Part shown: positions 8,777 to 59,777 of the stretch, one piece after another
Numbering within the stretch: the first letter of the stretch is position 1
How the letters are laid out: each line of letters begins with the position of its first letter
Assembly: GCA_038207045.1 (NCBI GenBank)
Contig: JBBRAF010000009.1
Span: forward strand, 19,392 to 83,391
Length of the DNA: 64,000 bases
Direction: 5' to 3'
From: Chthoniobacterales bacterium
Lineage (GTDB): Bacteria; Verrucomicrobiota; Verrucomicrobiia; Chthoniobacterales; UBA10450
Position numbers and translations under genes: made by a program
The notes under the pieces: model-generated
Databases searched by the model: none
What the model was told of the DNA's origin: nothing
What the model saw: only the letters and a program-made list of their open reading frames with translations

Positions 8777-9985
8777 CTAGAAACGAACGGTGAATTGAGT
8801 GGCCACGGTGTGGCCGGCGTCCCGGGGCTGCTCGTTCTGATAGTAGTATTGCAACTTCATCTGGGTATTAGAGGTGAAGCGATAAGCCACTGCCGCTTCG
8901 ATGCGGGAGATGTCCGGAATGCTCATGCTGCCATCAGCAAAGGCACCAGCAAAAAACTCCTGATTCCACCGAACGGCTGCGAAGAGCTGCGGAGCGAACT
9001 TATACTTCGCTTCGATATAATAACTGATCGCATCGGCGTGACCGCTTCGTGGCACTTCGAAGCGCACCTCATACACCTCCGCCCAAAGTTGCCAGTGACG
9101 CCACGCAAAACTGACATCCTGTCCCAGTAGGAATTGATGGAAATCCGCGGTGCTTCGGCCATGCGGGAGAAATGGCTGTGCCGCGTCGGACAAGTAAGCG
9201 CCTTCACTTCCTGATAACCCGATTTTCCAACTTTGGTCGGGCCGAAAGCTGAGATGACTTGTTAGGGTAGGATGCGAGAAGCCCCGACGGGTAAGGTCCC
9301 ATTCTTCCGGCCGCGAAGAAAGCGACGAGTTTTTGAGCTCGATCGCATACTCGAACTGCGAGATCGATCCCGTAACCGACACCCCGCTGGCATAGCTAGG
9401 CCCCCAGATCAGTGGAACATGCTCATACTTTGTCTCCTGGTTGAGGGGAAAAACTCCCCCCCCGTGAAACGGCGGTTCCAAGTCAGAAACACCGGTCACG
9501 TTCTCGTAAGGAAGCGGAGCGTTGATGAACGGGTTGTCCCAGGAGAGATGGCGCTCAACCCATGTTCCGGCCACGGTGGCAAACTTTCCTATCTGAACGT
9601 TGAAGATACCGCTCGTCCAAGGGGTAGCTCTCAAGGCATATTCATCAATGCCAACGCGAACCCCATCGTCGCTCGGATCGAACCCACGGTCGACGCGGAC
9701 CTGCGAAAAGAAATAGAACTGTGAGCCGGCCTGAGCATCGAGGAACAAGCTAAGGCGCGGGTTAACGAGGTCGTGGGCAGTAGTATCGATGAGACCGGGA
9801 GCAGGATTGCTAAAGTAGTATGCTTCGAAATCTAAAGTGCCACTTAATCGAAGCCGGAGAGTATCGTCGAAAGCGCTCAGCCGCAGCGATTCATCCAAGC
9901 GATCGATAAGGCCATCAATATCGAGGGCATCAGCTTGCGAAATAAACAAGCAGGCGAGAAAGACGCTTCGGAGCGTCCGTTTCAT
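8777..9985 (-). CDS. outer-membrane beta-barrel protein (porin-like), function unknown
   Basis: 402 aa with a signal peptide and alternating beta-strand pattern. The C-terminus is ...QFTVRF (terminal aromatic). It overlaps the upstream kinase gene by 4 bp. Confidence 0.55.
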   Translation of the reverse strand: MKRTLRSVFLACLFISQADALDIDGLIDRLDESLRLSAFDDTLRLRLSGTLDFEAYYFSNPAPGLIDTTAHDLVNPRLSLFLDAQAGSQFYFFSQVRVDRGFDPSDDGVRVGIDEYALRATPWTSGIFNVQIGKFATVAGTWVERHLSWDNPFINAPLPYENVTGVSDLEPPFHGGGVFPLNQETKYEHVPLIWGPSYASGVSVTGSISQFEYAIELKNSSLSSRPEEWDLTRRGFSHPTLTSHLSFRPDQSWKIGLSGSEGAYLSDAAQPFLPHGRSTADFHQFLLGQDVSFAWRHWQLWAEVYEVRFEVPRSGHADAISYYIEAKYKFAPQLFAAVRWNQEFFAGAFADGSMSIPDISRIEAAVAYRFTSNTQMKLQYYYQNEQPRDAGHTVATQFTVRF

Positions 9986-11760
9986 GCGCTACCAGCACCG
10001 TTCTGCCTTTGTGAAGGAACTTGGAAACTCACCTCAAACTCCGTCCAATCGTTCGCGGAACTAACGAGACGTAGCTCGCCGCCGTGTAAAAGAGCGAGCT
10101 CGCAGGCAAGGTTCAGACCCAACCCGTGCCCGGCGACGTTACCACCCGCCCCTCCGCGGTTAAATCGCTCGAAAATATGTTCCTGTGCCGCCGGAGGGAT
10201 GGTCGAACCGGTATTTCCAATGCTCAGCGCGACCCCCTCCCGCCGTCGGCGCGTCGCGACGCGAATGCGGCCGCCCGGGCGATTATACTTGCGCGCATTC
10301 TCGATCAGGTTTTGCACGATCAAACTGGTGTAACGCTTTTCTCCCGCGACGTGCAAACCGGGAGAAACCTTTTTCTCAATTTGGACGTCCATCGAATCAG
10401 GCAATGCGCTCAGGTCATCCAGCCATTCATTCACCAATTCGGTCAAATCGACTGAGCTAAAGTCGATACTAAGTCTTCCCGCGTCCATGCGCGACAGCAA
10501 GAGGAGATCATCGATGACTCCCGTCAACCGGTAGGTCTGGTGTAGAAGTGAGGAAAGCTCATCGTAGACCGGCGCGTCAAAATCATTTCGCGCAAGGAGT
10601 GATTCGATGCCGACGCGCAGCACCGTGACCGGGCTCTTGAGCTGGTGCGACGCGTCGGCAGAGAAACGGGAAGAGCGCTTCAGTTCCTGGCTGGTGGTGG
10701 CAAGAGTCGCTTCAGCGCGTTCACGGCCGGCCAGGTTCGCCTCCGACTCGATGGCGAGCTTCTCGACCGGGCGAGACAAGCGCCCCGCTGCAAAGTGGCT
10801 GGCCAGAAAACCGAGGGCCAAAAGTCCGATACCGGCGCCAACGATCTGCGCCTGTAGTTTTCGCCGCCGCGCCGTGGCATTTTGCAGCGAATAAATACAG
10901 ACCTCGTAGGCTGGCGGGAACATTGATTGAGGATTGAGGATGCGAAAGAAGAGAAGGTGCGGCGAACCATCTAACGAGATGGTGAAGTTATTGCGCTCGG
11001 CTGTGCCGCGAAGGATCTGGGCCCCGAGATCGTGACTGAGAGCTTCCACCGCGGGCGCGCTCAGCGCCGGCAAGGAGAGACGACCATTTATCCAAATACC
11101 ACTGCGCATTTTCGATTCTTTCGCTCGCAGTTGCAGCGGTTCAAACCCGACGACAAGCGCGGAAATAACCTCGCCGGTCTCAGTGGAGTAGATGGGCAGT
11201 GTGATGATCTCATCGATGATCTCTCCCCGATCTCTCGAGCTTCGGAAAAAATAACCGATTTGCGTGTTCGTGGGCAGCTTGGCTAAAGTAATTTGCGATT
11301 CGTCCGCCGCGCTCAGTCGGCCGACCTCCGCGGGATTAGGCGGTGAAATAACCGATCCACTGGCATTGAGAAAGCGGTAGAAAGTGGCGGGCAAGGTGAG
11401 GGCACTGGGATCTGAGTTGGGTTCGCCCGATCGTAAGAGATCGCGTAGCTCGTCTTTCGCGCTCGGATAGAGCAGATCCAGCGCGTTATCTTCAAGCGCG
11501 GCGTGTAAACGGGGTTTAAGAACGAGACTGCGGCAGCGTTCGGCCAACACCTGGTGCCGTGCCTCTTCCGCGCGGTCAAGTGAAGTAAGCGCACTGCGGA
11601 ATTCCTGCTGCAAATCGCGCTCGGCGTCAGCGACGGCGTTACGCTGGACGATGTAAACTGCGACCATCGTTAAAATGCCGATGACGAGCATCATCGCTAC
11701 GATCAGCTTCGCCCGAAATGTGGCGACACCGCGTCGATCGAATCGAGGAAACGCGCTCAC
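9982..11760 (-). CDS. sensor histidine kinase (two TM segments, large extracytoplasmic loop, HisKA + HATPase_c)
   Basis: 592 aa. H-box FSADASHQLKSPVTVL, N-box/G-boxes (IENARKYN, GTGLGL-like GHGLGLNLA). Confidence 0.85.
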   Translation of the reverse strand: MSAFPRFDRRGVATFRAKLIVAMMLVIGILTMVAVYIVQRNAVADAERDLQQEFRSALTSLDRAEEARHQVLAERCRSLVLKPRLHAALEDNALDLLYPSAKDELRDLLRSGEPNSDPSALTLPATFYRFLNASGSVISPPNPAEVGRLSAADESQITLAKLPTNTQIGYFFRSSRDRGEIIDEIITLPIYSTETGEVISALVVGFEPLQLRAKESKMRSGIWINGRLSLPALSAPAVEALSHDLGAQILRGTAERNNFTISLDGSPHLLFFRILNPQSMFPPAYEVCIYSLQNATARRRKLQAQIVGAGIGLLALGFLASHFAAGRLSRPVEKLAIESEANLAGRERAEATLATTSQELKRSSRFSADASHQLKSPVTVLRVGIESLLARNDFDAPVYDELSSLLHQTYRLTGVIDDLLLLSRMDAGRLSIDFSSVDLTELVNEWLDDLSALPDSMDVQIEKKVSPGLHVAGEKRYTSLIVQNLIENARKYNRPGGRIRVATRRRREGVALSIGNTGSTIPPAAQEHIFERFNRGGAGGNVAGHGLGLNLACELALLHGGELRLVSSANDWTEFEVSFQVPSQRQNGAGSA

Positions 11761-22460: not shown

Positions 22461-23231
22461 CTACCCTTTGCTCGAAGGCAGCTCGCGGGCGAAGAATTTC
22501 GCCGCCTTCGGGCGCACGATTTGCATCGCCGTTTCGCTGAGGACATGGCCCTCGCCTGACACGAAATCCGTCTCTACCTCACCACCACGCGCGCCGAGGA
22601 CTCGCTGAAGCGGCTTCGCATATTTTTCGAACGGCACCCGCTTATCCGCCACGCCGTGCACCATCAGCACCGGCGGCATTTTGCCGACACGTTTCTCCTG
22701 CGAGTTCCACATGCCGCCGGCCTGCTCCGTCACCGCACCCACTAAAGGATTGTTTGATGATGCCGCGATCGCCAGGAAAGCGCCCAATGAATATCCGTAG
22801 ACGCCGATCGGCCGTGCGCCTTTGCCCTCCCGATCATGCACCCACGCAATCCCATCGCGCACCGTCTGCAGCCAGTCGTCGAAACGCGCCTGCATTTCCG
22901 GGTCGCGAGCGGCGATTGTGCCTGTGCGATTGAAGTAATGGAGCAGATAAACCGTGTCGCCGGCATCGGCGAGCGCACGCGCCACCCGACGCATGCGCGA
23001 ACCATCGAAAAGCATCCCGCCCGCTCCATGCAACACAATAACCGCGCGCAGCGATTTCGGCCCGGCCGGCGCATAAAGCTCCGCGCGAATCTTCCTGCCC
23101 GCGCTCTCGAAGGACAAGCTCGCCGGGCGCGCCGTCGTGCCACCACCATCGCCGCCTGCCGCCAGCAACGGTTCGGCGACCGCAAAACTCAGCAGCAGCA
23201 AAACCCTCGTCGCCGCGCGAAAGATCCTCAT
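22461..23231 (-). CDS. secreted alpha/beta hydrolase (dienelactone hydrolase / prolyl oligopeptidase-like)
   Basis: 256 aa with a signal peptide, HGAGG oxyanion-like motif, nucleophile elbow GYSLGA, and a C-terminal HG.AD and GEGH. Confidence 0.75.
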   Translation of the reverse strand: MRIFRAATRVLLLLSFAVAEPLLAAGGDGGGTTARPASLSFESAGRKIRAELYAPAGPKSLRAVIVLHGAGGMLFDGSRMRRVARALADAGDTVYLLHYFNRTGTIAARDPEMQARFDDWLQTVRDGIAWVHDREGKGARPIGVYGYSLGAFLAIAASSNNPLVGAVTEQAGGMWNSQEKRVGKMPPVLMVHGVADKRVPFEKYAKPLQRVLGARGGEVETDFVSGEGHVLSETAMQIVRPKAAKFFARELPSSKG

Positions 23232-23370
23232 ACGGCAATATCGCGATCCGCCGCTCGTCCCGAACAGAATGTCGACGATTTGCCTGGCTATCCCGTGGCG
23301 TTCTAGCGGCGCACGCGTTCCGGACGCGACTGGAAGTACTTGTTTACAAGTTTGGACGCGAAAGTGATGA

Positions 23371-23654
23371 CGACGAGACGAAAGATCCAGCGAAACATAA
23401 TAGTAATGGTGAAAGCGGCGACTGATCAGCCGCTCGCTTTGGAAACGGCGCTCATCCTCTCTCTGGCCGTCTGGAGCTTTGGCATTGCCGTTCTCAGCGT
23501 TTCAGCTTCTCGGACTTTTCAGCTTCTTAGCTCTCGTGCTATCTCTCGGCTTTCACCAGATTGCGATCGTCCCTTCTCAGAGCCTTTACTGAGTTTTCCT
23601 CTGCGTTATTCTTTTCCGGCCGCCTGCGACCGTCGGTTGCCAGCGCCTGGTCAG
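23371..23654 (-). repeat. degenerate attC-like repeat(s) at the distal end of the array
   Basis: The left end CGACGAGACGAAAGATCCAG resembles the family left end CTAACGAGACGAAGATCAG. The right end CAGAGCCTTTACTGAG...CAGCGCCTGGTCAGG resembles TCTGAGCCTTTCGCTGCATCGCCTGGTTAC. The interior is not alignable. Confidence 0.4.
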
Positions 23655-23788
23655 GACTTTCGATCCTGCCAGGGAAACGGTTTGTCCTTTGGATGTTTGA
23701 TAAACTCTTCAATCAATTTCCTTATCGCTTCCTGCTCAGCGCCCTTCATCACTGGCTGGATGCTCGCCTCGTTGAGGCGAGCTCCCAT
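23651..23788 (-). CDS. possible 45-aa ORF; doubtful
   Basis: The ATG lies 2 nt after the stop of the upstream ORF. Its 5' end forms a perfect 9-bp hairpin GCTCGCCTC-AAC-GAGGCGAGC. It may be non-coding. Confidence 0.25.
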   Translation of the reverse strand: MGARLNEASIQPVMKGAEQEAIRKLIEEFIKHPKDKPFPWQDRKS

Positions 23789-23790
23789 AA

Positions 23791-24177
23791 CTAGCCGCAG
23801 GTAGCACCGACGATCTGCAACTGATCCCAACCTACGGGTGCACGAAGCGTGGTGCAATCTATTATGATGACGATTCGGCCTGGTTCTTCTTCGGTCGCGG
23901 AAACCTTAATACCGGCCTCGAATGCAAGGTTGATGTTGCCGACGGGCTGCGGCGCGTTTGTTGGCGGAACGTTCTGGACGCAAATCAGCCGGACAGGGGT
24001 GGGCATGCCGGACTGAGCATACCAATCGTGACACATGACCGGCGCGATCGTAATCTCGCCTGACCCAAGGCCGTCCAGTGGCTGGTAAGTCTGCGTAAGG
24101 CTGGACTCACCCCCAGCAGCGACGCGCAAGGTGCCGCAAACCAGAAGACTAAGGCATGCCGTTTTCAGTGAGCGCAC
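23791..24177 (-). CDS. cassette ORF: secreted protein of unknown function
   Basis: 128 aa with a GTG start and a signal peptide (MRSLKTACLSLLVCGTLRVAAG). It lies between attC-like repeats. Confidence 0.55.
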   Translation of the reverse strand: MRSLKTACLSLLVCGTLRVAAGGESSLTQTYQPLDGLGSGEITIAPVMCHDWYAQSGMPTPVRLICVQNVPPTNAPQPVGNINLAFEAGIKVSATEEEPGRIVIIIDCTTLRAPVGWDQLQIVGATCG

Positions 24178-24183
24178 AAAGAG

Positions 24184-24328
24184 GCCTAACGAGACAAAGC
24201 TCAGTCACAACTCAGGGAAGCGCAAGCCTGCCGGGCCTTGGCGGGCGGCGCTGTTCCCACTAACCGATAACTAGTAATCCTTAACTCACAAGTGTCTCTG
24301 AGCCTTTCGCTGCATCGCCTGGTTACAT
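24184..24328 (-). repeat. attC-like repeat A (145 bp)
   Basis: The plus strand starts GCCTAAC and ends GTTACAT. The inner arms AAAGCTCAG and CTGAGCCTTT are complementary. It aligns over its full length with 26082-26232. Confidence 0.65.
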
Positions 24329-24346
24329 GGTAGCGTGGCATGAATA

Positions 24347-24598
24347 TCAGATCTTCTCGCACGTGTCAGCCGAAGAGTCAGGAAGTAGTCTCAAGACTTC
24401 GTTTGCCTTCGTTAGGTCATCCGGCAAACCTTCGAGTTCAAAATCAATCGGTACGCCGTGTCCGTTCTCAGCGAAGGTGACTTTCACGCGGCCTGCCAAG
24501 CCTGCAGATGCCAATTTCTCAGCGATCTGCTCTTTCACCCGCTGCCCGATCTTGTTGCTAAGCTCGTCGCTCGAGAAATCGATATTGAAGCGTAACAT
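24347..24598 (-). CDS. cassette ORF: 83-aa acidic protein of unknown function
   Basis: MLRFNIDFSSDELSNKIGQRVKEQIAEKL...; flanked by attC-like repeats A and E. Confidence 0.55.
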   Translation of the reverse strand: MLRFNIDFSSDELSNKIGQRVKEQIAEKLASAGLAGRVKVTFAENGHGVPIDFELEGLPDDLTKANEVLRLLPDSSADTCEKI

Positions 24599-24624
24599 GG
24601 TCCGCTGGTGCTACACCTGAAGTC

Positions 24625-24747
24625 CCCTAACGAGACGAAGATCAGAGACGCCTACCGGGGGCGAGCGTAGCTCGTGGATGAAATGGTTGAGTCATCGAAA
24701 ATGTGGATCGTACAGGGGCAAGCGTTCGTTGCATCGCCAGATTAGGC
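24625..24747 (-). repeat. attC-like repeat E (123 bp)
   Basis: It starts CCCTAACGAGACGAAGATCAG and ends CGTTGCATCGCCAGATTAGGC, which is the family right-end motif with A in place of the first G. Confidence 0.55.
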
Positions 24748-24771
24748 CTCGCGTGGGACTCCCCCAGTTCT

Positions 24772-25168
24772 CTATCGCCACCGGCTGAGGATAACAACCA
24801 TCAGCAGTATTTTGCCGAACCAGTCTCCGGCATGAATGCATGCGAGCTTCCACGGCACATTCTCCCACATCACAGACCCAGACAAAAGTAATGCAGGAAA
24901 GCCAATCCACGTCAAAACAGCGAACTGGATCGCGGCTGGCCAGCCGGTGATACCAAGACGGCTGACTAAATACGCCAGGACGCAAGCAAGAACGACGTTT
25001 CGGGCGATTTCGCCGATCATTTTTACTGGCTGCGGCTTCTTCATGTCTGCCACCGCCGCAGAACTCAGCTCCGCTCGCTGCTTGGCGAAAGCGATGTACC
25101 ACGCCGTGCTGAAACACAAACGCCGCCACTGCCGCCACTATAACCGCCGGATATTTGATTTGATGCAT
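24772..25168 (-). pseudogene. cassette gene: DUF1761-family membrane protein, frameshifted near 25112-25120
   Basis: The N-terminus MHQIKYPAVIVAAVAAFVF is in one frame. The remainder, STAWYIAFAKQ...GWPAAIQFAVLTWIGFPALLL...AGDWFGKILLMVVIL, is in another. The switch occurs at a GTGTTTC run. Confidence 0.6.
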
Positions 25169-25186
25169 AGTTTACATTTTCTGTGG

Positions 25187-25310
25187 GCCTAACGAAACGT
25201 AAGATGAGCCACCGCTGGCGGGATCGAGCGCGGCTTGCAATGGGTGTGTTTTCTTAGGAGTAAGCGAGGCGTCGACCCGGCCAGCGGTTGGCTGCAGCGC
25301 TTGCTTAGAT
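25187..25310 (-). repeat. attC-like repeat C (124 bp)
   Basis: It starts GCCTAACGAAACGTAAGATGAGCCACCGCTGGCGGG and ends CCCGGCCAGCGGTTGGCTGCAGCGCTTGCTTAGAT. The arms CCACCGCTGGCGGG and CCCGGCCAGCGGTTGG are complementary. The TAA stop of the upstream ORF lies in the terminal core. Confidence 0.6.
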
Positions 25311-25616
25311 CGTTGTACCATCGCGGAGCGATGCACGCCAAGCACGCAGAACCCAGCCGACACACCACAATAAACTAACCACAACAGCGTACAAAAGCAT
25401 GTTGGCACCAATGCTCATCGCGATGGTGGCGTAAGCACCAGGCTCGTGCTCATGTCCGTCGGTAGCCAAAAGAAATATTCCGCTCAGCCACAGGAAAGCA
25501 CCGCGACCGCCTGCGACGTGCTCTGCAAAACGATGCGACGCGAGGGAGAGAATGGGAGCAACGACGCCAAGCAGTGCTCCAGCCAGAAAAGCTGATCTAA
25601 ACTTCGGGAGGTGCAT
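25305..25616 (-). CDS. cassette ORF: 103-aa membrane protein of unknown function
   Basis: Three hydrophobic segments (FLAGALLGVVAPILSL, FLWLSGIFLLA, MLLYAVVVSLLWCVGWVL). Confidence 0.55.
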   Translation of the reverse strand: MHLPKFRSAFLAGALLGVVAPILSLASHRFAEHVAGGRGAFLWLSGIFLLATDGHEHEPGAYATIAMSIGANMLLYAVVVSLLWCVGWVLRAWRASLRDGTTI

Positions 25617-25618
25617 AG

Positions 25619-25812
25619 ATCTAACGAGCAGTCGGTGTCATTTATGACGTAAAACAAATGCATCGACGTGACGTATGATACGACCTTTCTCCTTGCAGGC
25701 CAGCCTCAGGAAGGCAACCGCCCGCTCATTTCTGACCGGCGGTCTGCTTTTCCGTAATGTGGCCGCCAAGCCGGGGGTTTTAGTTCCATTCTGATTAGCT
25801 GCGTGGTTAGAT
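25619..25812 (-). repeat. attC-like repeat F (194 bp, AT-rich interior)
   Basis: It starts ATCTAACGAG and ends GATTAGCTGCGTGGTTAGAT. Both cores fit the consensus exactly. The TAA stop of ORF 25807.. lies inside GTTAGAT. It is longer than classical attC sites. Confidence 0.5.
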
Positions 25813-26052
25813 GTCTGATGATGGAGTGAACCACTCGGTTAAAGCGTCCCAGGTCTTCTGCTTAAGCAGCTTGCCGCTTGGCCGGCGCCATCGCAAGCCG
25901 CCAACGCTGATGGTGAGAGTCCCTAGCTTCCGTCGACGCCTCTTCCACTTTTCCCATACCTCAAACTGGACTCCGCGCTTGCCGATATCCACGTACTCAA
26001 GAACCCTTGCTGAGACCCATTTTGTCGGGCGACCCTTTTGCCTGCCTTTCAT
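25807..26052 (-). CDS. cassette ORF: 81-aa basic protein of unknown function
   Basis: The start is placed at MKGRQKG, preceded by AGGAGG (the reverse complement of CCTCCT at 26061-26066). Confidence 0.55.
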   Translation of the reverse strand: MKGRQKGRPTKWVSARVLEYVDIGKRGVQFEVWEKWKRRRRKLGTLTISVGGLRWRRPSGKLLKQKTWDALTEWFTPSSDI

Positions 26053-26081
26053 CTTTGTTCCTCCTGTATCATAGTTGCGCC

Positions 26082-26232
26082 GTCTAACGAGACATAAGCT
26101 CAGCCACGGCTCAGGTAAACGCAAGGCTGCCGGCTGTGGCGGGAAACACTGTTCCCAATTAACCGATAAACTGATAACCCTCCTCCACTCACGAAGTGCG
26201 TCTGAGCCTCTGGCTGCACCGTCTGGTTAGGT
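26082..26232 (-). repeat. attC-like repeat B (151 bp)
   Basis: It starts GTCTAACGAGACATAAGCTCAG and ends CTGAGCCTCTGGCTGCACCGTCTGGTTAGGT. The cores fit the consensus. The TAA stop of ORF 26227.. lies inside the core. Confidence 0.65.
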
Positions 26233-26656
26233 CATTCGTCGTCGGAGGACTTGGGTGGAGTCACACGCAGAAGGCTCGCAGAGGAGTCGCTTGGCTGAAA
26301 GCCCAACGTGACGTCGCACGAGTAGAAGACGCGGCCCACGGGCCGGGTCGCTCACCGAAAACCGGAGTTCTAGATCGAGCTTATTGCCGTCCCAGCGCTT
26401 TGGCTCGGAGAGACAGTGAAGGTCGGGTTGTGTCGCGGTCACGCGGCCGAGCGCGTTCTGCGTGTAATCGGGCAGAGTGATACGGGTGGCAGAGGCACCT
26501 GCTAGATAGAACACGTAAATCTCCAGACTGTGTCTCGCACCTACGATGCGAACCTCGTAATGGCCATCTTTGGAGCGGCCGCCATCGACCAAAGCTTTCT
26601 TTCGCACCCGCTGAGGTGGCGAACGCGAATGTGAACATGAGAACAAGTGCTCGCAT
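26227..26656 (-). pseudogene. cassette gene: secreted protein of unknown function, frameshifted near 26590-26600
   Basis: The signal peptide MRALVLMFTFAFATSAGAKE is in one frame. The body KALVDGGRSKDGHYEVRIVGARHSLEIYVFYLAG... is in another. The switch occurs at GAAAGAAAGC. Confidence 0.5.
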
Positions 26657-26659
26657 CAG

Positions 26660-26695
26660 ACCTAATCAATTAGACGAAAGGTCGTAATTAATTGA
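26660..26695. repeat. short hairpin with an attC-like end (ACCTAAT) immediately upstream of the first cassette ORF
   Basis: TCAATTAGAC-GAAAG-GTCGTAATTAATTGA is an imperfect hairpin. On the minus strand it reads ...TTCGTCTAATTGATTAGGTCTGATG, which resembles the family end TTCGTCTCGTTAGG. Confidence 0.35.
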
Positions 26696-26718
26696 AGCGT
26701 AGGAGAGCTTCGGGACAA

Positions 26719-27450
26719 CTACAGAACGTTCTTGCCGCGGCCGGTCACGACCTTTACGAATTCTTCCACCTCTGGAAAGGCCTTGTCTCCATTCCAGGCA
26801 ACCCAAAACGGAGTGATAACTGGGGGACTTACCGGGCGAAAGACGACATTCGCGTGAGGAAGCCTTTTCGCCAGCTCGGGCAGAAGAGCGACTCCCAGGC
26901 CGGTCGCGACTGCGTGCAATACCGGCCGGTCGAACTCGACTTCCTGCAGAACCTTAGGTCGATATCCGGCTTTCGCGCAGCTTTCAGTCAACCACCTGCG
27001 ATATCCCGGTCGGGCCGTCTCCGAGATGCCGACAAAGAACATCGGTTCCAATTCTTTGAGTTTGACGGTGGATCGGCGTGCCAAATGACTCTGCTTCGGC
27101 AAAGCGACAAACGTCTTATACGCTGCCACGGGATGGGCTTTGAGGCCGCTTCGTTCCATGACCTGAGGCGATCCAACAAAGCCCAGGTCGAGACGGCCAT
27201 CCGCGAGTCTGGACAACTGCTCGCCACAGGTGAGATCGAAGAGGGGAACCGGTATGGCGGGAAAAGTCGCCTGGAATGTGCCAATGCTGGCAGGAAGTAA
27301 ATCGTGCACCAAATCCGCCACGTACCCAATTCTTAAGCCGCGCTTTTCTTCCCGATCCAGTGTGCGAACCGACTCCACGATTTCCTTCCCATGAGCAATT
27401 ACCCGTCGTGCGTCGGCGAGAAAGGACTTCCCCGCCGCGGTCAGGGTAAC
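26719..27450 (-). pseudogene. LysR-family regulator lacking its N-terminal HTH domain (5'-truncated)
   Basis: The substrate-binding domain is intact (LRIGYV...LDLGFV...). Similarity extends upstream only to ...VTLTAAGKSFLADARRVI. The wHTH (about 60 aa) is missing, and the sequence there belongs to another gene on the opposite strand. Confidence 0.7.
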
Positions 27451-27454
27451 GCAA

Positions 27455-27988
27455 ATGCGGGAAGAAGCTTCAGCGTTCGACCCGGCCAGCAGCAGCGTGT
27501 TCGCCTGGGCAGTGATGATCGTTCGCTCCTACGCGGTAGAGTGGTTACGCCGGCGCGGCAAGGTCGTTTTTCGAAAATCTCACATCGCGGCGGCGGGATC
27601 GTTCAATCTGGAACGCCAACGCGATGATAGCCAAAAGGGGAGCGACGGCCAGGCCGCGCTGGCGTTGCTCTCACCGGAACAGTGGGAGGTTCTCGAGCTT
27701 GCGTTTTTCCAGGGTATCTCACCCAGCGAAATATCCGAGGCGCTCACCCTCCCCGTTATCACGGTGAAGGCGAGGATTCGTTCCGGTCTGCTTTGCTTGC
27801 GTGAGGCTTTAGCCGCGTCTGAGCAGGAGTCGCCATTTGCGGTCCCGCGTTCAGGTATCTTCCGACGCGGGACCCAGCTCGTTAGCGGACGTAGGAGGGA
27901 TGGAACTCGGCTCATGCTGGACATCTGCGCACTCTTGTGGTCGAATCTCGCGGTGCGCGTGAATTCTTTTCAGAGCCGCGGTGACTAA
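27455..27988 (+). pseudogene. ECF sigma factor lacking regions 2.1-2.2 (5'-truncated)
   Basis: It aligns by eye with the sigma at 6797-7408, starting at ...SSVFAWAVMIVRSYAVEWLRRR (region 2.4) and running through region 4 (WEVLELAFFQGISPSEISEAL..ITVKARIRSGL). About 70 N-terminal residues are absent. Confidence 0.65.
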
Positions 27989-27990: not shown

Positions 27991-28404
27991 ATGAGAACTG
28001 ATCTAACTATCCGCGGTCGCCCGGTCACGATGGTCGCTGCCAAAGAGCGAACAATCGTCGAGAATGGAGCCTTGTTTGTGGCGCATCAGCGGCTCCGGAA
28101 AACGATTCGTCCAAATGCCGTTCGACTTCAGTCGCTCCTCAAGAACCACGACGAATCCACTTCCACCTTGCGCACCTCGGTAGGAGAGTTCGCCTTCAAA
28201 ACCACAGGACTCGGCTGCCAGCTCGAACTCATCCTCGGGAGGGTGCGTCGCGCTCTCGGTTTTTATCACTCGAGTGAGGCCGTGCTGCACGCGCTGAAAA
28301 GAGGCCGAACGGGTTTTCGCGCGTGGGATTCCTTGGAACGCGTAGCGACTGCTCGGCAAATCAATACACTTGGCCGCTGGAACAAAACGGAGAAGACTGC
28401 ATGA
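27991..28404 (+). CDS. hypothetical protein, translationally coupled to the neighbours on both sides
   Basis: 137 aa. It starts 2 nt after the sigma stop, and its TGA overlaps the desaturase ATG (ATGA at 28401-28404). I recognise no motif in it. Confidence 0.45.
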   Translation: MRTDLTIRGRPVTMVAAKERTIVENGALFVAHQRLRKTIRPNAVRLQSLLKNHDESTSTLRTSVGEFAFKTTGLGCQLELILGRVRRALGFYHSSEAVLHALKRGRTGFRAWDSLERVATARQINTLGRWNKTEKTA

Positions 28405-29402
28405 GTAACGCTTCGGTGATATCTACGCCCGAGTGTGAGGCCGGCGCGCTGAAAGAACGTACTTTCTTTCGGCTACCTCTGGATCGCATTAACTGGTTAA
28501 CCAGTTCTTTCCTTATAGGCACGCTTATCCTGACTCTAACGGCGGTCCCTCTTTACCTATACTATTTTGGACTCGACTGGTTCCAGGTAGCTCTTTTCTT
28601 TGCCATGCTGGCAGCCTGTGGGTTCAGCATCTCGTTAGGCTATCACCGTCTGTTTTCCCATATCGCTTTTCAAGCAAGCTGGCCGATCCGGCTTTTCACC
28701 TTGATCTTCGGAGCCGGCGCTTTCGAGAACTCGGTTCTGATGTGGGCGAGCGAGCACCGACGGCATCACAAACATGTCGATCATGATGAAGATCCTTACA
28801 GTATCTCAAAAGGATTCTTCTACGCGCACATCGGTTGGTTGATATTCAAGCTTAGTCCGGAGCCGCCTTACGATAACGTTGCGGACCTGCAGAAGGACAA
28901 ACTCATCCGCTTGCAGGATCGGCACGTGCACTCCATTGCGGTGGTCGTCAGCTTCCTGTTCCCGGCGGCGTTGGGGTATTTCTGGAATGGTTGGGAGGGA
29001 GCGCTCGGCGCCTTCCTGATTGCCGGTGTCGCGCGAATAGTTGTGCTGCAGCACTGCACTTTCTTGATCAACAGCGCATGTCACACCATGGGCCGACAGC
29101 CCTATTCCACCAAGTGCAGCGCGCGCGACTCCTTGTTTCTTGCCTTGTTCACTTTCGGGGAAGGGTATCATAACTATCACCACGAATTTCAGCACGACTA
29201 TCGCAATGGCGTGAAGCCCTGGCAGGTGGATCCCACTAAATGGATCATCTGGACGTTGGCGAAGCTCGGACTTGCCCGAGGTCTCCGACGTGTTTGCGTG
29301 GATAAGATTCAAGCGGCAGAACGTGCCACTCAAGCCAGCCGATTGACGGAGCGAAAAATGCCGACCTCCCAGGTGAATCCCGCAGGGACGTTCTCCTGTT
29401 AA
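28401..29402 (+). CDS. acyl-CoA (delta-9 type) fatty acid desaturase
   Basis: Three histidine boxes (HRLFSH, HRRHHKHVDHDEDP, GEGYHNYHHEFQHDY) and four TM segments. The start is placed at the internal ATG MSNASV. Confidence 0.85.
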   Translation: MSNASVISTPECEAGALKERTFFRLPLDRINWLTSSFLIGTLILTLTAVPLYLYYFGLDWFQVALFFAMLAACGFSISLGYHRLFSHIAFQASWPIRLFTLIFGAGAFENSVLMWASEHRRHHKHVDHDEDPYSISKGFFYAHIGWLIFKLSPEPPYDNVADLQKDKLIRLQDRHVHSIAVVVSFLFPAALGYFWNGWEGALGAFLIAGVARIVVLQHCTFLINSACHTMGRQPYSTKCSARDSLFLALFTFGEGYHNYHHEFQHDYRNGVKPWQVDPTKWIIWTLAKLGLARGLRRVCVDKIQAAERATQASRLTERKMPTSQVNPAGTFSC

Positions 29403-36639: not shown

Positions 36640-37920
36640 GTGAACCCGGACGTGCATCGACTGGTGGACCATCTTTTCCGTCGCGAGGCGGGGAAGATGG
36701 TCGCCATGCTGGCGCGTGCCCTGGGGTTCGATCACTTGCAACTGGCCGAGGACGCGATGCAGGAAGCGCTCCTTAGCGCGATGCGGACCTGGGCTCTGGG
36801 CGGTGTGCCGCGGGATCCTTCCGCCTGGTTGATGCGGGTGGCGAAGAATCGCGCACTCGACGTCGTACGGCGCGAAGCTAATTTCCGTGGCAAGGAGGAA
36901 CAGCTAACGGCATTTCTCGAGCAGCGCGCGGCGAGCCGGCCGCAGACATTTCGTTTCGAAGAGGAGATACGCGATGATCAGCTAAGTCTTATCTTTGCGT
37001 GTTGCCATCCGGACTTGTCTCGCGAGACGCAGGTAACTCTCACTCTCAAGACGCTGTGCGGTTTTGGGGAAAAGGAGATCGCGGCCGCTTTTCTCACTTC
37101 GCCGGCGGCGATCGCGAAGCGGCTGGTGCGCGCCCGGAAGAAGATTCGCGAAAGCAGGATAGCGCTCGAGGTTCCCAGTGGCGCAGAGCTAGGTGCGCGC
37201 CTGGAGGTCGTACTCGATGCGCTCTATCTGCTCTTCAACGAAGGCTACAAGGCGTCGCAGGGCGATGAGCTGGTGCGGAAGGAACTTTGCGACGAAGCCA
37301 TCCGGCTCGCCGAGATCCTGGCCGCGCATCCGGCGGGTGATCGGCCGAGGACGCACGCTCTTCTCGCGCTCATGCTTTTTAACTCTGCCCGCCTCTCCGG
37401 ACGAGCCGATGCCGATGGCAATATTCTCTTACTCGCCGAACAGGATCGAAGTCTGTGGGATCGGGCGATGATTGAGGGCGGTCTGGCGGAGCTGAATCGA
37501 TCGGCGACCGAAAAGGAGATCAGCGAGTTCCATTTGCAGGCGGGCATCGCCTGTTGTCATTGTGCGGCGAAGACCTACCAAGCGACTGACTGGGAACGCA
37601 TCCTGTCGCTCTACGATATGCTGATCGCGGTCGATCACTCACCGGTGGCGGCTTTGAACCGGACGGTGGCGCTTTCCAATGTAAGAGGCCCGGAAGCGGC
37701 GCTGAAAGCGATCGCGACGATCCCTTCGCCGGAACTACTGGCAAGTTACTACCTGTATCACGCGGTCCTGGGCCACTTGCATTTCCTTCTGGGTGATTGG
37801 GAGACGGCCAGGCTCGGTTTCGAGCGCGCTGCAGAATTGACAGAGGTGAAATCTGAGCAGGCGTTTCTGCACCGCCGCGCATCGGAATGCGCACCTAGGA
37901 AGAGTGAAGCACAGCCCTGA
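36640..37920 (+). CDS. ECF sigma factor with a long C-terminal TPR-like extension (ECF42-like)
   Basis: 426 aa. Regions 2 and 4 are recognisable (EDAMQEALLSAMRTW, AWLMRVAKNRALDVVRRE, LKTLCGFGEKEIAAAFLTSPAAIAKRLVRARKKI), followed by a ~230-aa helical extension. It sits directly downstream of the DGPF gene. Confidence 0.8.
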   Translation: MNPDVHRLVDHLFRREAGKMVAMLARALGFDHLQLAEDAMQEALLSAMRTWALGGVPRDPSAWLMRVAKNRALDVVRREANFRGKEEQLTAFLEQRAASRPQTFRFEEEIRDDQLSLIFACCHPDLSRETQVTLTLKTLCGFGEKEIAAAFLTSPAAIAKRLVRARKKIRESRIALEVPSGAELGARLEVVLDALYLLFNEGYKASQGDELVRKELCDEAIRLAEILAAHPAGDRPRTHALLALMLFNSARLSGRADADGNILLLAEQDRSLWDRAMIEGGLAELNRSATEKEISEFHLQAGIACCHCAAKTYQATDWERILSLYDMLIAVDHSPVAALNRTVALSNVRGPEAALKAIATIPSPELLASYYLYHAVLGHLHFLLGDWETARLGFERAAELTEVKSEQAFLHRRASECAPRKSEAQP

Positions 37921-37921: not shown

Positions 37922-38047
37922 GACTAACGAGACCAAGCTCGGCGCATGCGGAAGTGGATGCTCATTGACTGCTTTAGATGCTCCCTGCGCTTCCTGAAAG
38001 TGAGGATGCGACGAGGAAATTCCGAAGCCGCCTCTTATCAGTTACCA
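37922..38047 (-). repeat. isolated attC-like repeat G
   Basis: It starts GACTAACGAGACCAAGCTCGG, the same left-end family as 24184/26082, one nt after the sigma TGA. Candidate right ends are CCGCCTCTTATCAGTTACCA (38047) or GACTGCTTTAGATG (37979). Confidence 0.45.
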
Positions 38048-38479
38048 ATGATCGTTAATGCGCCGATCGAGGCTTGCGGTAGCTTCTGGAGTAGCTCCGG
38101 GGCGAGCGCTCGAAGCTGATCGAGGCGATTCGTCCGCGCACGCAGCAATAACACTGCAATTCGGAAGTTCGGAGATTCTGTCCCTCCGAGAGCTTGCGAT
38201 CAACAGTCATGAAAGCGTCGATCAGACGCCAGAAAGTCTTCCATATAAAGCAGGGGATAGAAAGGCAGAAAAACCTGTCTCGCCGAAGCTCAGCCCCGTA
38301 ATTCGTGGTGCTCGCAACAACTGACCAGAGCGTGAGAAGGCAATTACTCGCATCCTGAACGCGATCGGTGCAGATTTCTCGAATGTTCGCCGCGAATTCT
38401 ACCGTCTCGGTTTCGAATCCGCCCCGCGTGAATCCAAAGCCCGCATTCACTGCATCTCACAGATCGGGAGGCCGATCTT

Positions 38480-53498: not shown

Positions 53499-56255
53499 AT
53501 GAATTACAAAGACACCCTCAATCTGCCGCGGACGGATTTTCCGATGAAGGCGAATCTGGCCCAGCGCGAGCCGGAGATGTTGCGCATGTGGCAGGAAACG
53601 CGCGTCTACGAGCAAATCCAGAAAGCGCGCGCAGAAGCCGAGCTCTTCGTGCTGCACGACGGACCACCTTTTGCCAATGGCGACGTGCACATGGGCACGG
53701 CACTGAACAAGATCCTTAAGGACATGGTGGTGAAATCGCAGACCATGCTTGGCAAACGCGCGCCTTACGTGCCGGGTTGGGACTGCCACGGTCTGCCCAT
53801 TGAATACAAAGTAGTGAAGGAATCAGGCTCGCTTGCGCCGGTGGAAGTGCGCAAACTTTGCGAAGCTTTTGCGCGCAAGTTCATCGGTATCCAACGCGAG
53901 CAATTCAAGCGGCTCGGCGTTTTTGGCGATTGGGAGAATCCTTATCTCACGATGGATCCGGTATACGAAGCCGAGATCCTGCGCGCGTTCGCGGTTTTTG
54001 TGGAGCGCGGTCTCGTTTATCAATCGAAGAAGCCGGTCTTCTGGAGCACGGGTGCACAGACGGCACTGGCGGAAGCGGAGGTCGAATACCAGGAGCGCAA
54101 CGACACCGCCGTGTTTGTGAAGTTCCCGATGGCGACGGGACAGCTCGCAGGCAAAGCGAGTATCGCCATCTGGACGACGACGCCGTGGACCTTACCGGCA
54201 AACCTGCTCATCGCAGTCCATCCGAAGGAGATTTACGTCGTGCAGGAATTCCGCCGCGAAGATGTTTCCGAAACGTTGATCCTGGCCGACAAACTTGTGG
54301 ACTCGTTCTGCGTCGCGAATGGCTTCGCGCCGACGGGCCAGCCGATGGAATCGTTTCCTGGCGCCAAGCTCGAAGGTTTCGGCGCGCAACATCCGTTTTT
54401 GAATCGCACCGCCATGATCCTGGCGGCGGATTTCGTCACCATGGACAGCGGGACGGGCGCAGTGCACATCGCTCCCGGCCACGGCGAAGATGACTACGCA
54501 TTAGGATCGAAGAACGGTTTTCCGATTCTGTCCCCGGTGGACGATCATGGTCGCTTCACCGAGGACGTGGGAATTCCCGAGCTCGTCGGCAAATATGTTT
54601 TCGATGCCAACGCCGACATCGTTCGAATCCTACGCGAGCGCGGCATGCTCCTGGCCGAGCAAAATTTTCACCACAGCTATCCGTACTGCTGGCGCTCGAA
54701 AACGCCGATCATCTTTCGCGCGGTCGAGCAGTTTTTCATTCGCATCGATCAGTTGCGCGGTCCGGCCCTCGAGGCCATCACGAAAGTGCATTGGATTCCA
54801 GCGTGGGGCGAGAATCGCATCGCCGGCACCGTTGCGTCGCGTCCAGACTGGGTGATCTCGCGCCAGCGCAGTTGGGGAGTGCCGCTGCCGGTCTTTTATT
54901 CGACGGCGGGCGAGCCAATACTAAATGCAGACTGGATTCGCCGACTGGCTGGTCTTGTCGCCGAACGCGGCTCGAACGTCTGGTTCGAGTTGAGCGACGC
55001 TGAGCTGGCGCGCGAATTAAATTTGCCGGAAGGAACAACCAGGCGCAACGACACCATCGACGTTTGGATCGACAGCGGTGTATCGCATCGCGCCGTTTGC
55101 GCGACGCATCCTGGGCTGCGCGATCCTGCCGACATGTATCTCGAAGCGACCGATCAGCATCGCGGCTGGTTCCAATCTTCGCTCATGACGAGTGTGGCGC
55201 TGAACAATCGCGCGCCCTACAAGAGCTGTGTCACGCACGGCTTCGTCGTCGATGTTGACGGCAAGAAAATTTCTAAATCGAGCACCTACAGCAAGCCGAT
55301 GGACGCGGCTCATTTCGTGAACAAACATGGCGCCGATCTGGTGCGGCTCTGGGTCAGCAGTATCGATTACACGGACGACGTCCCCTTCTCGGAAGAAATG
55401 TTCACGCGCCTGGGCGACACATACCGGCGCATTCGTAACACGCTGCGCATTCTGCATGGGAACCTGTTTGATTTTGAATCAGGAAAACAGGAAAGCAGGA
55501 AAGGATCGACGCTGATCGACCGCTGGATCGTCGGACGGCTCGGAGAAGTGATCAATGAATGCCGAGTCGCGTACGAAAACTTCGAATTTCACAAGGTCCA
55601 CCACAGCATTAATCAGTTTTGCGCGGTCGATTTGAGCAGCCTTTACGTCGACATCAGCAAAGACCGCATGTATTGCGACGCGCACGAATCACCGCGGCGA
55701 CGTGCGACGCAGAACGCGATGGCGAAGATTCTCGACGCGCTTTGCCGCCTTCTCGCGCCCATTCTCGCCTACACCTCGGAAGAAGCGTGGGGTTATCTCG
55801 GGCGCGGCGGTTCCATTCACTTGCAGCTCTTTCCGAATGGTAGGGCGGGCGCCTCGCCTGCCCCGGCAACCGCAACGGTCGCCCTCCAAATGGCCGAGCT
55901 GCTAAAACTGCGCGCGGTCATCGGCCAGGCGCTGGAAAAAGCGCGGCAGGACAAATTGATCGGAAATTCGCTTGAAGCACGTGTGAGGTTGAAATGTGAT
56001 CGCGCTGCTTTCGGCGAACTGTCGAAAGAAGAACTCGAAGAATTCTTCATCCTGAGCGATCTCACGATTGAGCAGGCGAGCGAAAACTCAGCGCAGGTCG
56101 AGAAGACACCGTTCGCCAAATGCGCGCGTTGCTGGCGTCATCGCGAATCGGTCGGAAAAAGCAACACGCATCCGGATTTGTGCGATCGCTGCGAAAATGT
56201 GATCACTTCGCCGTCATTCCGAGCGCAGTCGAGGAATCCCGATGCGAAAGCCTAA
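53499..56255 (+). CDS. ileS: isoleucine--tRNA ligase
   Basis: 918 aa. It has a HIGH-type motif (PFANGDVHMGTALNK), KMSKS (KISKSS), and a C-terminal Zn finger CARCWRH...CDRC. The last ~14 codons run into a REP-like palindrome. Confidence 0.95.
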   Translation: MNYKDTLNLPRTDFPMKANLAQREPEMLRMWQETRVYEQIQKARAEAELFVLHDGPPFANGDVHMGTALNKILKDMVVKSQTMLGKRAPYVPGWDCHGLPIEYKVVKESGSLAPVEVRKLCEAFARKFIGIQREQFKRLGVFGDWENPYLTMDPVYEAEILRAFAVFVERGLVYQSKKPVFWSTGAQTALAEAEVEYQERNDTAVFVKFPMATGQLAGKASIAIWTTTPWTLPANLLIAVHPKEIYVVQEFRREDVSETLILADKLVDSFCVANGFAPTGQPMESFPGAKLEGFGAQHPFLNRTAMILAADFVTMDSGTGAVHIAPGHGEDDYALGSKNGFPILSPVDDHGRFTEDVGIPELVGKYVFDANADIVRILRERGMLLAEQNFHHSYPYCWRSKTPIIFRAVEQFFIRIDQLRGPALEAITKVHWIPAWGENRIAGTVASRPDWVISRQRSWGVPLPVFYSTAGEPILNADWIRRLAGLVAERGSNVWFELSDAELARELNLPEGTTRRNDTIDVWIDSGVSHRAVCATHPGLRDPADMYLEATDQHRGWFQSSLMTSVALNNRAPYKSCVTHGFVVDVDGKKISKSSTYSKPMDAAHFVNKHGADLVRLWVSSIDYTDDVPFSEEMFTRLGDTYRRIRNTLRILHGNLFDFESGKQESRKGSTLIDRWIVGRLGEVINECRVAYENFEFHKVHHSINQFCAVDLSSLYVDISKDRMYCDAHESPRRRATQNAMAKILDALCRLLAPILAYTSEEAWGYLGRGGSIHLQLFPNGRAGASPAPATATVALQMAELLKLRAVIGQALEKARQDKLIGNSLEARVRLKCDRAAFGELSKEELEEFFILSDLTIEQASENSAQVEKTPFAKCARCWRHRESVGKSNTHPDLCDRCENVITSPSFRAQSRNPDAKA

Positions 56256-56308
56256 AGGTCACTTTCACGGGATTTCTCGACTTCGCTTCGCTTCGCTCGG
56301 AATGACGG
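56211..56308. repeat. REP-like palindromic element, copy 1
   Basis: The arms CCGTCATTCCGAGCG (56211-56225) and CGCTCGGAATGACGG (56294-56308) are complementary. An inner pair is GAGGAATCCC / GGGATTTCTC, and there is a CTTCG x3 tract. It is the same family as 58187-58283. Confidence 0.8.
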
Positions 56309-58186: not shown

Positions 58187-58283
58187 CCTGTCATCCCGAG
58201 CGAAGCCGAGGATTCCGGTGCCAAAGCTTTAAGCTGACTTTCCGGGATCCTCCAATTCGCTTCGCTTCGCTCGGGATGACAGG
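58187..58283. repeat. REP-like palindromic element, copy 2 (terminator-like)
   Basis: The arms CCTGTCATCCCGAGCG (58187-58202) and CGCTCGGGATGACAGG (58268-58283) are complementary, followed by GTTTTTG. It shares the CGCTTCGCTTCGCTCGG tract with copy 1. Confidence 0.8.
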
Positions 58284-58328
58284 GTTTTTGACATCAAACC
58301 TCAAACATCGAACATCAAAAATCTCGCT

Positions 58329-59777
58329 ATGCGCATATTGATGATCAGCGCGGAAGCGCCACCGATGCAGCGACCGGGTGCGCTGGTCGACGTGCTCGAG
58401 GCTTTGCCGCGCGAGCTCCGAGAGCGTGGCCATGAAGTGAGCGTGGTGTTGCCCTTTTACCAGGAGATTCGCGAGAACGACGGAGTGGAGACAAGCGACA
58501 CCGGCGTGACGGTGGACGTGCGCGTGGGCGAGAAGAACCATGTCGCGGAATATCTGGAAGGACACACGGCGAACGGCGTGCAGCTATTCTTTGTTCGCTG
58601 TGACGAGTTTTTTGATCGGCCGGAAGTCTACGGCGAGCATGGTATCGCCTACGAGGATAACGCGGCGCGTTTCATCTTCTTCGGCAAAGCCGCCATTGAG
58701 CTGGCGCGGCGGCTGACGCCGGTGCCGCAGATTTTGCACGCGCACGATTGGGCAGCGGCGCTGGTGCCAGCATATGTGCGCGCACACAATCTTCCTTTCG
58801 CCACGGTGCTGACGATCCACCGCATCGCCGAACAGGGAAGTTTTTGGGGACTCGATTTTGCCCTGACTAATTTACCGCAGCGTTTTTTTAGCCCGCGCGG
58901 ACTTGAGTTTTTCGGGCGGGTGAACTTTTTGAAAGGCGGAATTGTCTTTGCCGATCGCGTCACCACCGTGAGCGAGCATCACAAGCGCGAGATCGTAACG
59001 CCGAGCGGCGGCCACGAGCTCGACATCGTGCTGCGCGAAAACGCGCACAAACTAAGCGGGATTCTGCATGGCGCCGATTACGCGCGTTGGAACCCGGAAA
59101 GCGACCCGCTGCTGCCAGCGCACTTCGATTCACAAAAACTCTCGGGTAAAACAATTTGTCGCGATGCTCTACTGGCCGACCTCGGACTCGCGCCGCGGCC
59201 GAGTGGTCCGGTCTTCGGGATGGTCGCGCGCGTGGTCGCGGAAAAAGGATTCGAGATTCTGATGCCGCTGCTCGATCGGCTGCTTTCCGATGACGTGCGC
59301 CTGATTATCCTGGGCGAAGGCGATCCCGCTTTCGAGACCGCGCTTGCCATGGCCTCTCGCCGTTATCCCACGCAGTTCGCTTATCGGCGTCATTTCGAGG
59401 AGCGGCTAGCGCATCTGATCGAAGCCGGCTCCGACCTCACCCTCATCCCCTCGCGGTTCGAGCCCGGTGGTCTGATGGCGATGTATAGCTTGCGATACGG
59501 TGCGCTGCCGGTGGCGCATGCGAGCGGTGGAATCCAGGAGATCGTCGAGGACTACGACCCGAGCTCCGATCACGGTTCCGGATTTCTCTGTTACGACTAC
59601 TCCGCGGAAGCATTTTGGGATTCAATCAAACGTGCCCGCGAAGTTTTTCAGGACCGTGCCGTGTGGCTGAAGCTGATGAAGCGGGCGATGGCGCGCGAGT
59701 TTTCCTGGAGCGCGGCGGCAGAAAAATACGAGGAGCTATATCGCGGGCTTACTGGTGACGCGGAGCTGGCGGCGTGA
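58329..59777 (+). CDS. glgA: glycogen (starch) synthase
   Basis: 482 aa. MRILMISAEAPP...GALVDVLEALPREL, HAHDWAAAL, and the C-terminal PSRFEPGGL motif. Confidence 0.92.
   Translation: MRILMISAEAPPMQRPGALVDVLEALPRELRERGHEVSVVLPFYQEIRENDGVETSDTGVTVDVRVGEKNHVAEYLEGHTANGVQLFFVRCDEFFDRPEVYGEHGIAYEDNAARFIFFGKAAIELARRLTPVPQILHAHDWAAALVPAYVRAHNLPFATVLTIHRIAEQGSFWGLDFALTNLPQRFFSPRGLEFFGRVNFLKGGIVFADRVTTVSEHHKREIVTPSGGHELDIVLRENAHKLSGILHGADYARWNPESDPLLPAHFDSQKLSGKTICRDALLADLGLAPRPSGPVFGMVARVVAEKGFEILMPLLDRLLSDDVRLIILGEGDPAFETALAMASRRYPTQFAYRRHFEERLAHLIEAGSDLTLIPSRFEPGGLMAMYSLRYGALPVAHASGGIQEIVEDYDPSSDHGSGFLCYDYSAEAFWDSIKRAREVFQDRAVWLKLMKRAMAREFSWSAAAEKYEELYRGLTGDAELAA

Follow-up and report, generated by a model that had tools for sequence, protein, structure and literature searches.

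A probable decaying integron cassette array without an adjoining integrase in a Chthoniobacterales bacterium

Introduction

Following the definition of Cury et al. (2016, PMC4889954), a CALIN (a cluster of attC sites that has no integron integrase) holds at least two attC sites on one strand with no integrase gene (intI) within 4 kb. Those authors counted 279 CALINs in 2,484 complete genomes, with intI pseudogenes near only 15 of the 279, and reported both that Verrucomicrobia encode integrons and that loss of intI is one proposed origin of CALINs. Here we describe a locus of this kind in a stretch of 64,000 nucleotides (nt) from a Chthoniobacterales bacterium (Verrucomicrobiota), the whole of which we call the window. 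The array extends from ca. 23369 to 26693 and comprises six to seven small open reading frames (ORFs), all on the minus strand, with attC-like palindromes between them. We put the probability at about 90% that this region is a decaying CALIN, that its sites belong to an attC family of soil Chthoniobacterales, and that it arose by loss of intI.

Further work bears on the comparison. Nivina et al. (2016, PMC5027507) described an attC layout in which a 6-bp stem separates flipped-out bases at positions 16 and 23/24, both of them on the arm that faces the AAC triplet of the bottom strand. Within the soil/freshwater clade, an “inverted IntI” sub-clade is characterized by an intI gene that points the same way as its cassettes (PMC8352920). 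Taxon-specific attC models are available for 11 taxa, none of them Verrucomicrobia (Ghaly et al. 2021), and our full-text literature searches found no paper on Chthoniobacter or Udaeobacter integrons. The attC family of Chthoniobacterales may thus be undescribed, and may be one that standard tools would find. The array itself is a genuine but ordinary element of a known kind.

Results

A sequence-only reading of the window had delimited five palindromic elements among the small ORFs, designated A, E, C, F, and B in order of position, and had interpreted them as attC sites of an integron cassette array. The coordinates and ends given for all five are borne out in the sequence, and repeat finding and alignment showed that their common end motifs are real direct repeats, with A being ca. 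80% identical to B over its whole length. The motif CTAACGAGAC, with at most one mismatch, is present at 15 places in the window, where 2.8 would be expected. The gene boundaries are also as first described: the TAA stops of the ORFs beginning at 25305, 25807, and 26227 lie inside the RYCTAAC-like box, and the far end of each element (GTTAGRN) lies 2 to 29 nt ahead of the next start codon. GTTAGRY is exact in four of the five elements; RYCTAAC is exact in two, and the remaining three each depart from it at one position.

Elements A, E, C, and B all belong to one repeat family. When one genome per species was scanned with a two-ended pattern, at least 120 stretches (given L-numbers here) were recovered, and a profile search of these found at least 534 family copies in 121 sources (the 120 genome stretches plus the window); all counts for the family and for relatives given below are among the matches listed. 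The family ends are RYCTAAC in 412 and GTTAGRY in 416 of 445 full-length sites, and its members are mostly 123 to 130 nt long. Not one of the 121 sources carries copies on both strands. The copies form arrays of up to 16 per 8-kb tile, with a median gap of 417 nt, and 350 of 383 inter-site units (91%) have their longest ORF on the strand that carries the site. The great majority of the stretches (113 of 120, or 94%) come from bins labeled as Verrucomicrobiota, namely, Chthoniobacterales, Candidatus Udaeobacter, or Spartobacteria; this distribution fits the ordinary window genes, which share 70 to 78% DNA identity with their syntenic counterparts in bins of Verrucomicrobiae and Chthoniobacterales. 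For element F and for the left end of the array (23232 to 23800), the 120 stretches listed contained no similar DNA.

The seven remaining stretches (L011, L019, L025, L034, L051, L067, and L096) are from bins labeled Acidobacteria, Pyrinomonadales, Limnocylindria, or Alphaproteobacteria. Five of their contigs are only 2.8 to 5.4 kb long, while that of L025 is 20.8 kb and that of L067, in an “Alphaproteobacteria” bin, is 78 kb. These stretches reflect either binning errors or the transfer of cassettes between phyla; Alphaproteobacteria have been reported to be without integrons (PMC4889954).

Folding with DNA energy parameters gave a long imperfect hairpin for every element. For the family, 120 members were aligned in coding orientation, and a covariance model was built from the sequences of the 120 relatives, with no window sequence in it. 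In the RNAalifold consensus of the family, a local hairpin formed at the 3′ end and the two end boxes were not paired with each other; this fold was rejected in favor of the attC layout, which was then tested by pair counts. In this layout, the outer end box RYCTAAC (positions 1 to 7) is followed by a 5-nt outer-arm spacer, CAGGC (8 to 12), the inner box GAT (13 to 15), and a 6-bp stem, CAGCGA (17 to 22). That stem lies between two unpaired bases, both on the outer arm: position 16 is G on the top strand in 94% of the 445 sites (C on the bottom strand), and position 23 is A in 99% (T on the bottom strand, the usual base there). From position 24, a covarying stem leads to a variable tip, and the 3′ arm returns as …TCGCTG-ATC, a TTG(T)GTCTC spacer, and GTTAGRY. 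This geometry matches the published description of attC (PMC5027507).

The pairs themselves are well supported, and the claim that structure is kept while sequence varies holds for this family. Standard pairs occupy 94.4% of alignment cells, 12 pairs are changed on both sides among the 120 sequences, and compensatory changes are found in 10 of the 17 inner-stem pairs; one such pair, for example, is GC in 56 sequences, CG in 32, and AU in 26. Covariation scored 0.278, versus 0.099 for shuffled alignments and no more than 0.05 when partner columns were slid, and in the slid controls only 14 to 41% of cells were paired. The sequence-only reading needs correction as to the inner box, which it had placed at AAGCTCAG, pairing with CTGAGCC. 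The conserved box is instead GAT[G]CAGCGA[A]CC with GG-TCGCTG-ATC (coding strand), and this removes most of the asymmetry between the two spacers which that reading had listed as a caveat: the 5 nt on one side stands, while the other side measures 8 to 9 nt rather than 14. The TCTC of this inner-arm spacer is conserved even in 288 sites outside the search-pattern selection.

At the coordinates first proposed, the model matches four of the window elements end to end on the minus strand, at 34 to 73 bits. The best preserved site is C (25187 to 25310; 124 nt, 72.6 bits, E = 4e-19), which has AAG instead of AAC in its outer box, and the others are E (24625 to 24747; 123 nt, 65.9 bits, E = 3e-17), with AAT at the same place, B (26082 to 26232; 151 nt, 50.9 bits, E = 8e-13), and the eroded A (24184 to 24328; 145 nt, 34.2 bits, E = 7e-8). 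Element F (25619 to 25812, minus strand; 194 nt) is aberrant in that its ATCTAAC and GTTAGAT boxes are intact and its interior is unlike the attC family; it gave no match with either the covariance model or nhmmer. As a cross-check, the model was run on the class 1 integron In2 of R100, where it returned one significant match, the 60-nt attC directly after aadA1 (33.7 bits, E = 7e-9), on the correct strand only and with all pairs standard.

During cassette recombination, the crossover falls between the G and the TT of the core, and the last six bases of a site therefore belong to the next cassette. It follows that the outer box of a site should complement the end of the preceding site and not its own end. 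This is what we observed in the family: in 240 of 281 cases (85%), the two outermost bases agree with the preceding site, compared with 135 of 410 (33%) for the site's own other end and 72 of 280 (26%) for the following site. In the window, three of the six junctions (attI remnant to B, F to C, and C to E) match at six of six positions and that from B to F at five of six, whereas at E to A the signature fails. The attI remnant, which is described below, has a TTAGGT exactly complementary to the outer box of attC B. Because its TTAGAT matches the outer box of C at all six positions, element F is a real cassette boundary; within F, attC-like sequence is confined to the two 7-nt end boxes. Together with a cassette homologue situated in another array (see below), the boundary signature provides indirect support for the view that these sites may have been recombined by IntI.

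In 14 of the stretches from relatives, a tyrosine recombinase gene lies beside the array, and the five integrases that were scored gave 438 to 472 bits on TIGR02249 (“integron integrase”; cutoff, 265). The gene is upstream of the cassettes and on the same strand in seven loci (L020, L038, L058, L085, L086, L097, and L106) and divergent, as in class 1 integrons, in the other seven (L071, L082, L083, L095, L109, L110, and L121). In both types, attI was seen to end in …TTCTCGTTAGRY, preceded by inverted copies of short motifs such as AGACGAA/TTCGTCT.

No such gene was found in the window. A tblastn search of the full 64 kb with four IntI proteins of the family returned nothing below E = 0.1, not even a fragment, and Pfam scans of 20 window ORFs found no recombinase. 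What we did find, directly upstream of cassette 1, is an apparent attI remnant (26660 to 26693, minus strand), of which only the cassette-side half is left. It matches the region just after intI in L058 at 22 of 24 nt and aligns with an attI sequence (…ACGAAC.TTCGTCTAATTCTCGTTAGRY) that is conserved among 12 relatives. The remnant carries a 2-nt deletion and a G-to-A change in its core, so that GATTAG stands in place of CTCGTTAG and the degenerate core reads ATTAGGT (26660 to 26666).

Where intI sits in intact relatives, the window has a LysR-family gene without its 5′ part (26719 to 27378, minus strand; Pfam finds the substrate-binding domain only), and this truncated gene marks the breakpoint. 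Next to it, and divergent from it, is a fragment of an extracytoplasmic function (ECF) sigma factor gene (27455 to 27988, plus strand; region 4 only), which likewise lacks its 5′ part; the two meet at a 76-nt junction (27379 to 27454). A separate assembly of run SRR19962011 shows the identical arrangement. Two genes without 5′ parts point to a deletion or rearrangement, and the same event may have taken intI with it. The locus as a whole stands between a hydrolase gene (22461 to 23231) and a desaturase gene (28323 to 29402).

The sites of the array, and at least one of its cassette genes, are decaying. Of 17 inner-stem positions, Watson-Crick pairs are kept at 15 in C, 13 in B, and 11 in both E and A, which places the window in the low tail of a family in which 66% of members have 16 or 17. 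The end-box core is fully paired (five of five) only in B, with four of five in C, E, and A; such a mismatch is thus present in three of the four recognized window sites, compared with 8% of family members. The DUF1761 gene of cassette 4 (24772 to 25168, minus strand) scores 70.9 bits over profile positions 11 to 122 as the ORF stands and 82.6 bits over positions 2 to 122 with the frames joined, a gain in score and extent that indicates a frameshift, near 25110. This decay, the lack of intI in the window, and the attI remnant all go beyond the sequence-only reading.

The remaining features of the array can be followed from its head, all on the minus strand. The coding part of cassette 1 (26227 to 26656), which precedes attC B, may contain a frameshift, in that its signal-peptide-like start at 26656 and its long ORF (26227 to 26646) are in different frames; a homologue search returned its own record only, and a separate Logan assembly gives an identical sequence. 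Cassette 2 pairs an ORF for a basic 81-residue protein with no Pfam family (25807 to 26052) with element F. The ORF of cassette 3 (25305 to 25616), which precedes attC C, encodes a 103-residue membrane protein that is 42% identical to the product of L061:981-1292, located exactly between two attC sites of a 16-site array. Cassette 4, with the DUF1761 gene, ends in attC E; DUF1761 was the sole family match among the array ORFs. Cassette 5 encodes an acidic 83-residue protein (24347 to 24598) and ends in attC A, and cassette 6 (23651 to 24177) contains ORFs of 128 residues with a signal peptide (23791 to 24177) and 44 residues (23651 to 23785).

Beyond cassette 6 lies a probable terminal attC site, badly degraded (23369 to 23655, minus strand). 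It consists of an outer-arm half (23632 to 23655) and an inner-arm half (23373 to 23387), which gave E values of 1.8 and 0.86 in a 2.4-kb nhmmer search and lie ca. 245 nt apart, as opposed to ca. 85 nt normally. The degenerate copy earlier proposed at 23371 to 23654 is upheld only to the extent that these two weak half-matches are in the right order and orientation.

A sigma-70 scan of 23200 to 27600 found no promoter site, which fits promoterless cassettes and is weak evidence in a verrucomicrobial genome. Rfam and tRNA scans of the window gave no match; Rfam has no attC family. The attC elements have no T-run after the stem and no terminator-like site inside them, and terminator-like sites in the array region are no more frequent than expected by chance. 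Two Logan contigs of run SRR19962011 overlap the array and break off at 23558 and 25888, as expected if repeated sites fragment a short-read assembly.

Elsewhere in the window, further copies of CTAACGAGAC at 10061, 10971, 12537, and 18456 lie inside ordinary genes (e.g., a histidine kinase gene, 9982 to 11760), have no model match, and were taken as chance. A lone, degraded copy of the attC family is present at 37922 to 38046 (minus strand), with a well-kept inner-arm half, CCGAGCTTGGTCTCGTTAG (nhmmer E = 1e-4 in a small search), and only 10 bits for the whole element with the covariance model. It follows a 131-residue ORF (38055 to 38450, minus strand) and abuts the stop of a sigma-70/DUF6596 gene (36640 to 37920, plus strand), and it may be a single cassette at a secondary site. 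A different palindromic intergenic repeat of ca. 90 nt occurs at 56213 to 56306 and 58190 to 58280. Its ends are GTCATTCCGAGCG…CGCTCGGAATGAC, reading GTCATCCCGAGCG in the second copy, and over 80 nt the first copy shares 85% identity with L024:4842-4920. The repeat has the look of a REP (repetitive extragenic palindromic)-type element unrelated to the integron.

Discussion

In the current study, we found that the small ORFs at 23369 to 26693 are separated by sites of an attC family which, in relatives, forms one-stranded arrays beside integron integrases, and that the window itself lacks intI. Going by the known workings of integrons, each unit, a small promoterless gene with one attC, would once have been a free circle, and IntI would have inserted that circle at attI, cutting between the G and the TT of GTTAGRY. 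The substrate would have been the folded attC bottom strand, with its paired end box, unpaired spacer, inner box, and variable tip, the inner box presenting two flipped-out bases 7 nt apart with the 6-bp stem between. In the closest of the relatives listed, intI is upstream and on the same strand, and the attI remnant is of that type; we suggest that an integron with a codirectional intI lost that gene by deletion or rearrangement and kept the cassette-side half of attI. Without an adjoining integrase, the array would since have been eroding, at its end boxes and inner stems, in element F and the terminal site, and in the DUF1761 gene. We infer both this order of events and the present inactivity of the array.

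Several observations sit less comfortably with this interpretation. The inner-arm spacer of 8 to 9 nt exceeds the usual 5 to 6, the usual G is replaced by C (bottom strand) at the first flipped-out base, and sites A (145 nt), B (151 nt), and F (194 nt) are longer than the usual 57 to 141 nt, within which only E (123 nt) and C (124 nt) fall. The attI remnant rests on ca. 34 nt of similarity, and the frameshifts could be errors common to assemblies made from the same reads. In addition, the window covers 64 kb of a 92-kb contig, and an intI gene elsewhere could act on the better-preserved sites, B and C.

The last point leads to the principal alternative, namely, that this is a working satellite array which was parted from intI by rearrangement and whose cassettes are still moved by an intact intI elsewhere in the genome. 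Rearrangement is indeed among the sources of CALINs (Cury et al. 2016, PMC4889954), most pairs are retained in sites B and C, and there are precedents in relatives: OY970345.1 has arrays at 48 to 56 kb (with intI) and at 392 to 400 kb, and CAWCST010000001.1 has three distant loci. Nevertheless, we consider it unlikely that the array is still in use. A mismatch in the AAC/GTT end box in three of four recognized sites, against 8% in the family, and inner-stem pairing of 11 to 15 out of 17, in the family's low tail, are not what this alternative would lead one to expect; moreover, F and the terminal site are barely recognizable, the DUF1761 cassette is frameshifted, and the attI core itself is mutated (GATTAG for CTCGTTAG).

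More generally, family sites were seen at several loci within single Verrucomicrobiae genomes, with hundreds of kilobases between loci; one locus has intI and the others are satellite arrays or lone sites (OY970345.1, with L085 and L009; CAWCST010000001.1, with L029, L045, and L093; and CAWBIP010000002.1, with L015 and L052). In L120 (4872 to 5441), an attI-like sequence and an attC site stand between genes syntenic with those at 58324 to 62736 of the window, and the integron of that genome is therefore at a different chromosomal position.

Finally, the notion that the elements are intergenic repeats of the REP or miniature inverted-repeat transposable element (MITE) type, or plain transcription terminators, with no link to integrons, could appeal to their being imperfect palindromes between genes and to the different palindromic repeat elsewhere in the window, but it is refuted by the absence of opposite-strand copies from all 121 sources and the formation of arrays (the sequence-only reading had expected a REP/MITE family to be scattered regardless of orientation), the 91% of cassettes whose longest ORF is costranded with the site, the adjoining integron integrases, the cassette-boundary signature, the flipped-out bases at canonical positions, the recovery of the aadA1 attC by the family model, and, for terminators, the lack of a T-run after the stem or of any terminator-like site within the elements. 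The integron-cassette reading, by contrast, accommodates the repeat family, its orientation, the linkage to intI, the covariation, the boundary signature, and the aadA1 cross-check alike.

Integrase-less arrays are common, and the window alone therefore matters little. Of wider interest is the attC family, which is plentiful throughout the genomes of Chthoniobacterales and Candidatus Udaeobacter, bacteria that rank among the most abundant in soil, and which forms large arrays beside integrases; the covariance model could be used to assign soil cassettes to the Chthoniobacterales lineage. One tentative idea, to which we would give somewhat less than even odds, is that Chthoniobacterales, including Candidatus Udaeobacter, carry an undescribed integron lineage of which the window represents a decay stage. 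Such a lineage may be marked by uniform attC sites resembling the Vibrio cholerae repeats (VCRs), by C rather than G on the bottom strand at the first flipped-out base, by an extended spacer with conserved TCTC in both attC and attI, by both orientations of intI, and by several satellite arrays per genome. Should the odd base and the spacer mean that IntI recognizes its DNA in a distinct way, the system would count as a new variant.

It is instructive to set the locus beside known systems. One of these is the sedentary chromosomal integron with uniform attC sites, exemplified by the superintegron of V. cholerae and its VCRs (PMC5027507). Like the VCRs, the family is lineage specific and strongly conserved in sequence, its sites are long (123 to 130 nt) with a long variable tip, and the arrays of relatives reach 16 sites per 8-kb tile, with cassettes mostly of no assigned function. 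It differs in belonging to Verrucomicrobiota, in having two flipped-out bases as opposed to three, in having C instead of G (bottom strand) as the first of these, and in its longer inner-arm spacer; the window, in addition, has no integrase.

The aadA1 attC of R100 In2 shares with the family the 7-nt end box, the 5-nt spacer, the 3-bp inner box, the GTTAGRY core, and a 6-bp stem flanked by flipped-out bases (positions 16 and 23). However, it is only 60 nt long with a 3-nt tip, its inner-arm spacer is 6 nt compared with 8 to 9 nt, and its position 16 is C on the top strand and G on the bottom, whereas the family has G on top and C on the bottom in 94% of sites.

With regard to gene order, Treponema denticola offers an example of an inverted-IntI integron. 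Half of the intI-bearing relatives (7 of 14) resemble that type in having a codirectional intI, and the attI remnant in the window is of the same type. The other seven relatives, in contrast, combine a divergent intI with the same attC family, and the window has no intI.

The closest counterpart remains the CALIN. As in CALINs, four model-recognized sites stand on one strand within 2.1 kb, with two or three more degraded ones, there is no intI in the whole 64 kb, and the cassettes are small, of no assigned function, and free of resistance genes. Unlike CALINs as described, the window keeps a recognizable attI remnant at the head of its array, which points specifically to the loss of intI. In this respect, the locus is a clear example of decay following integrase loss, with half of attI retained while the end boxes and stems mutate.

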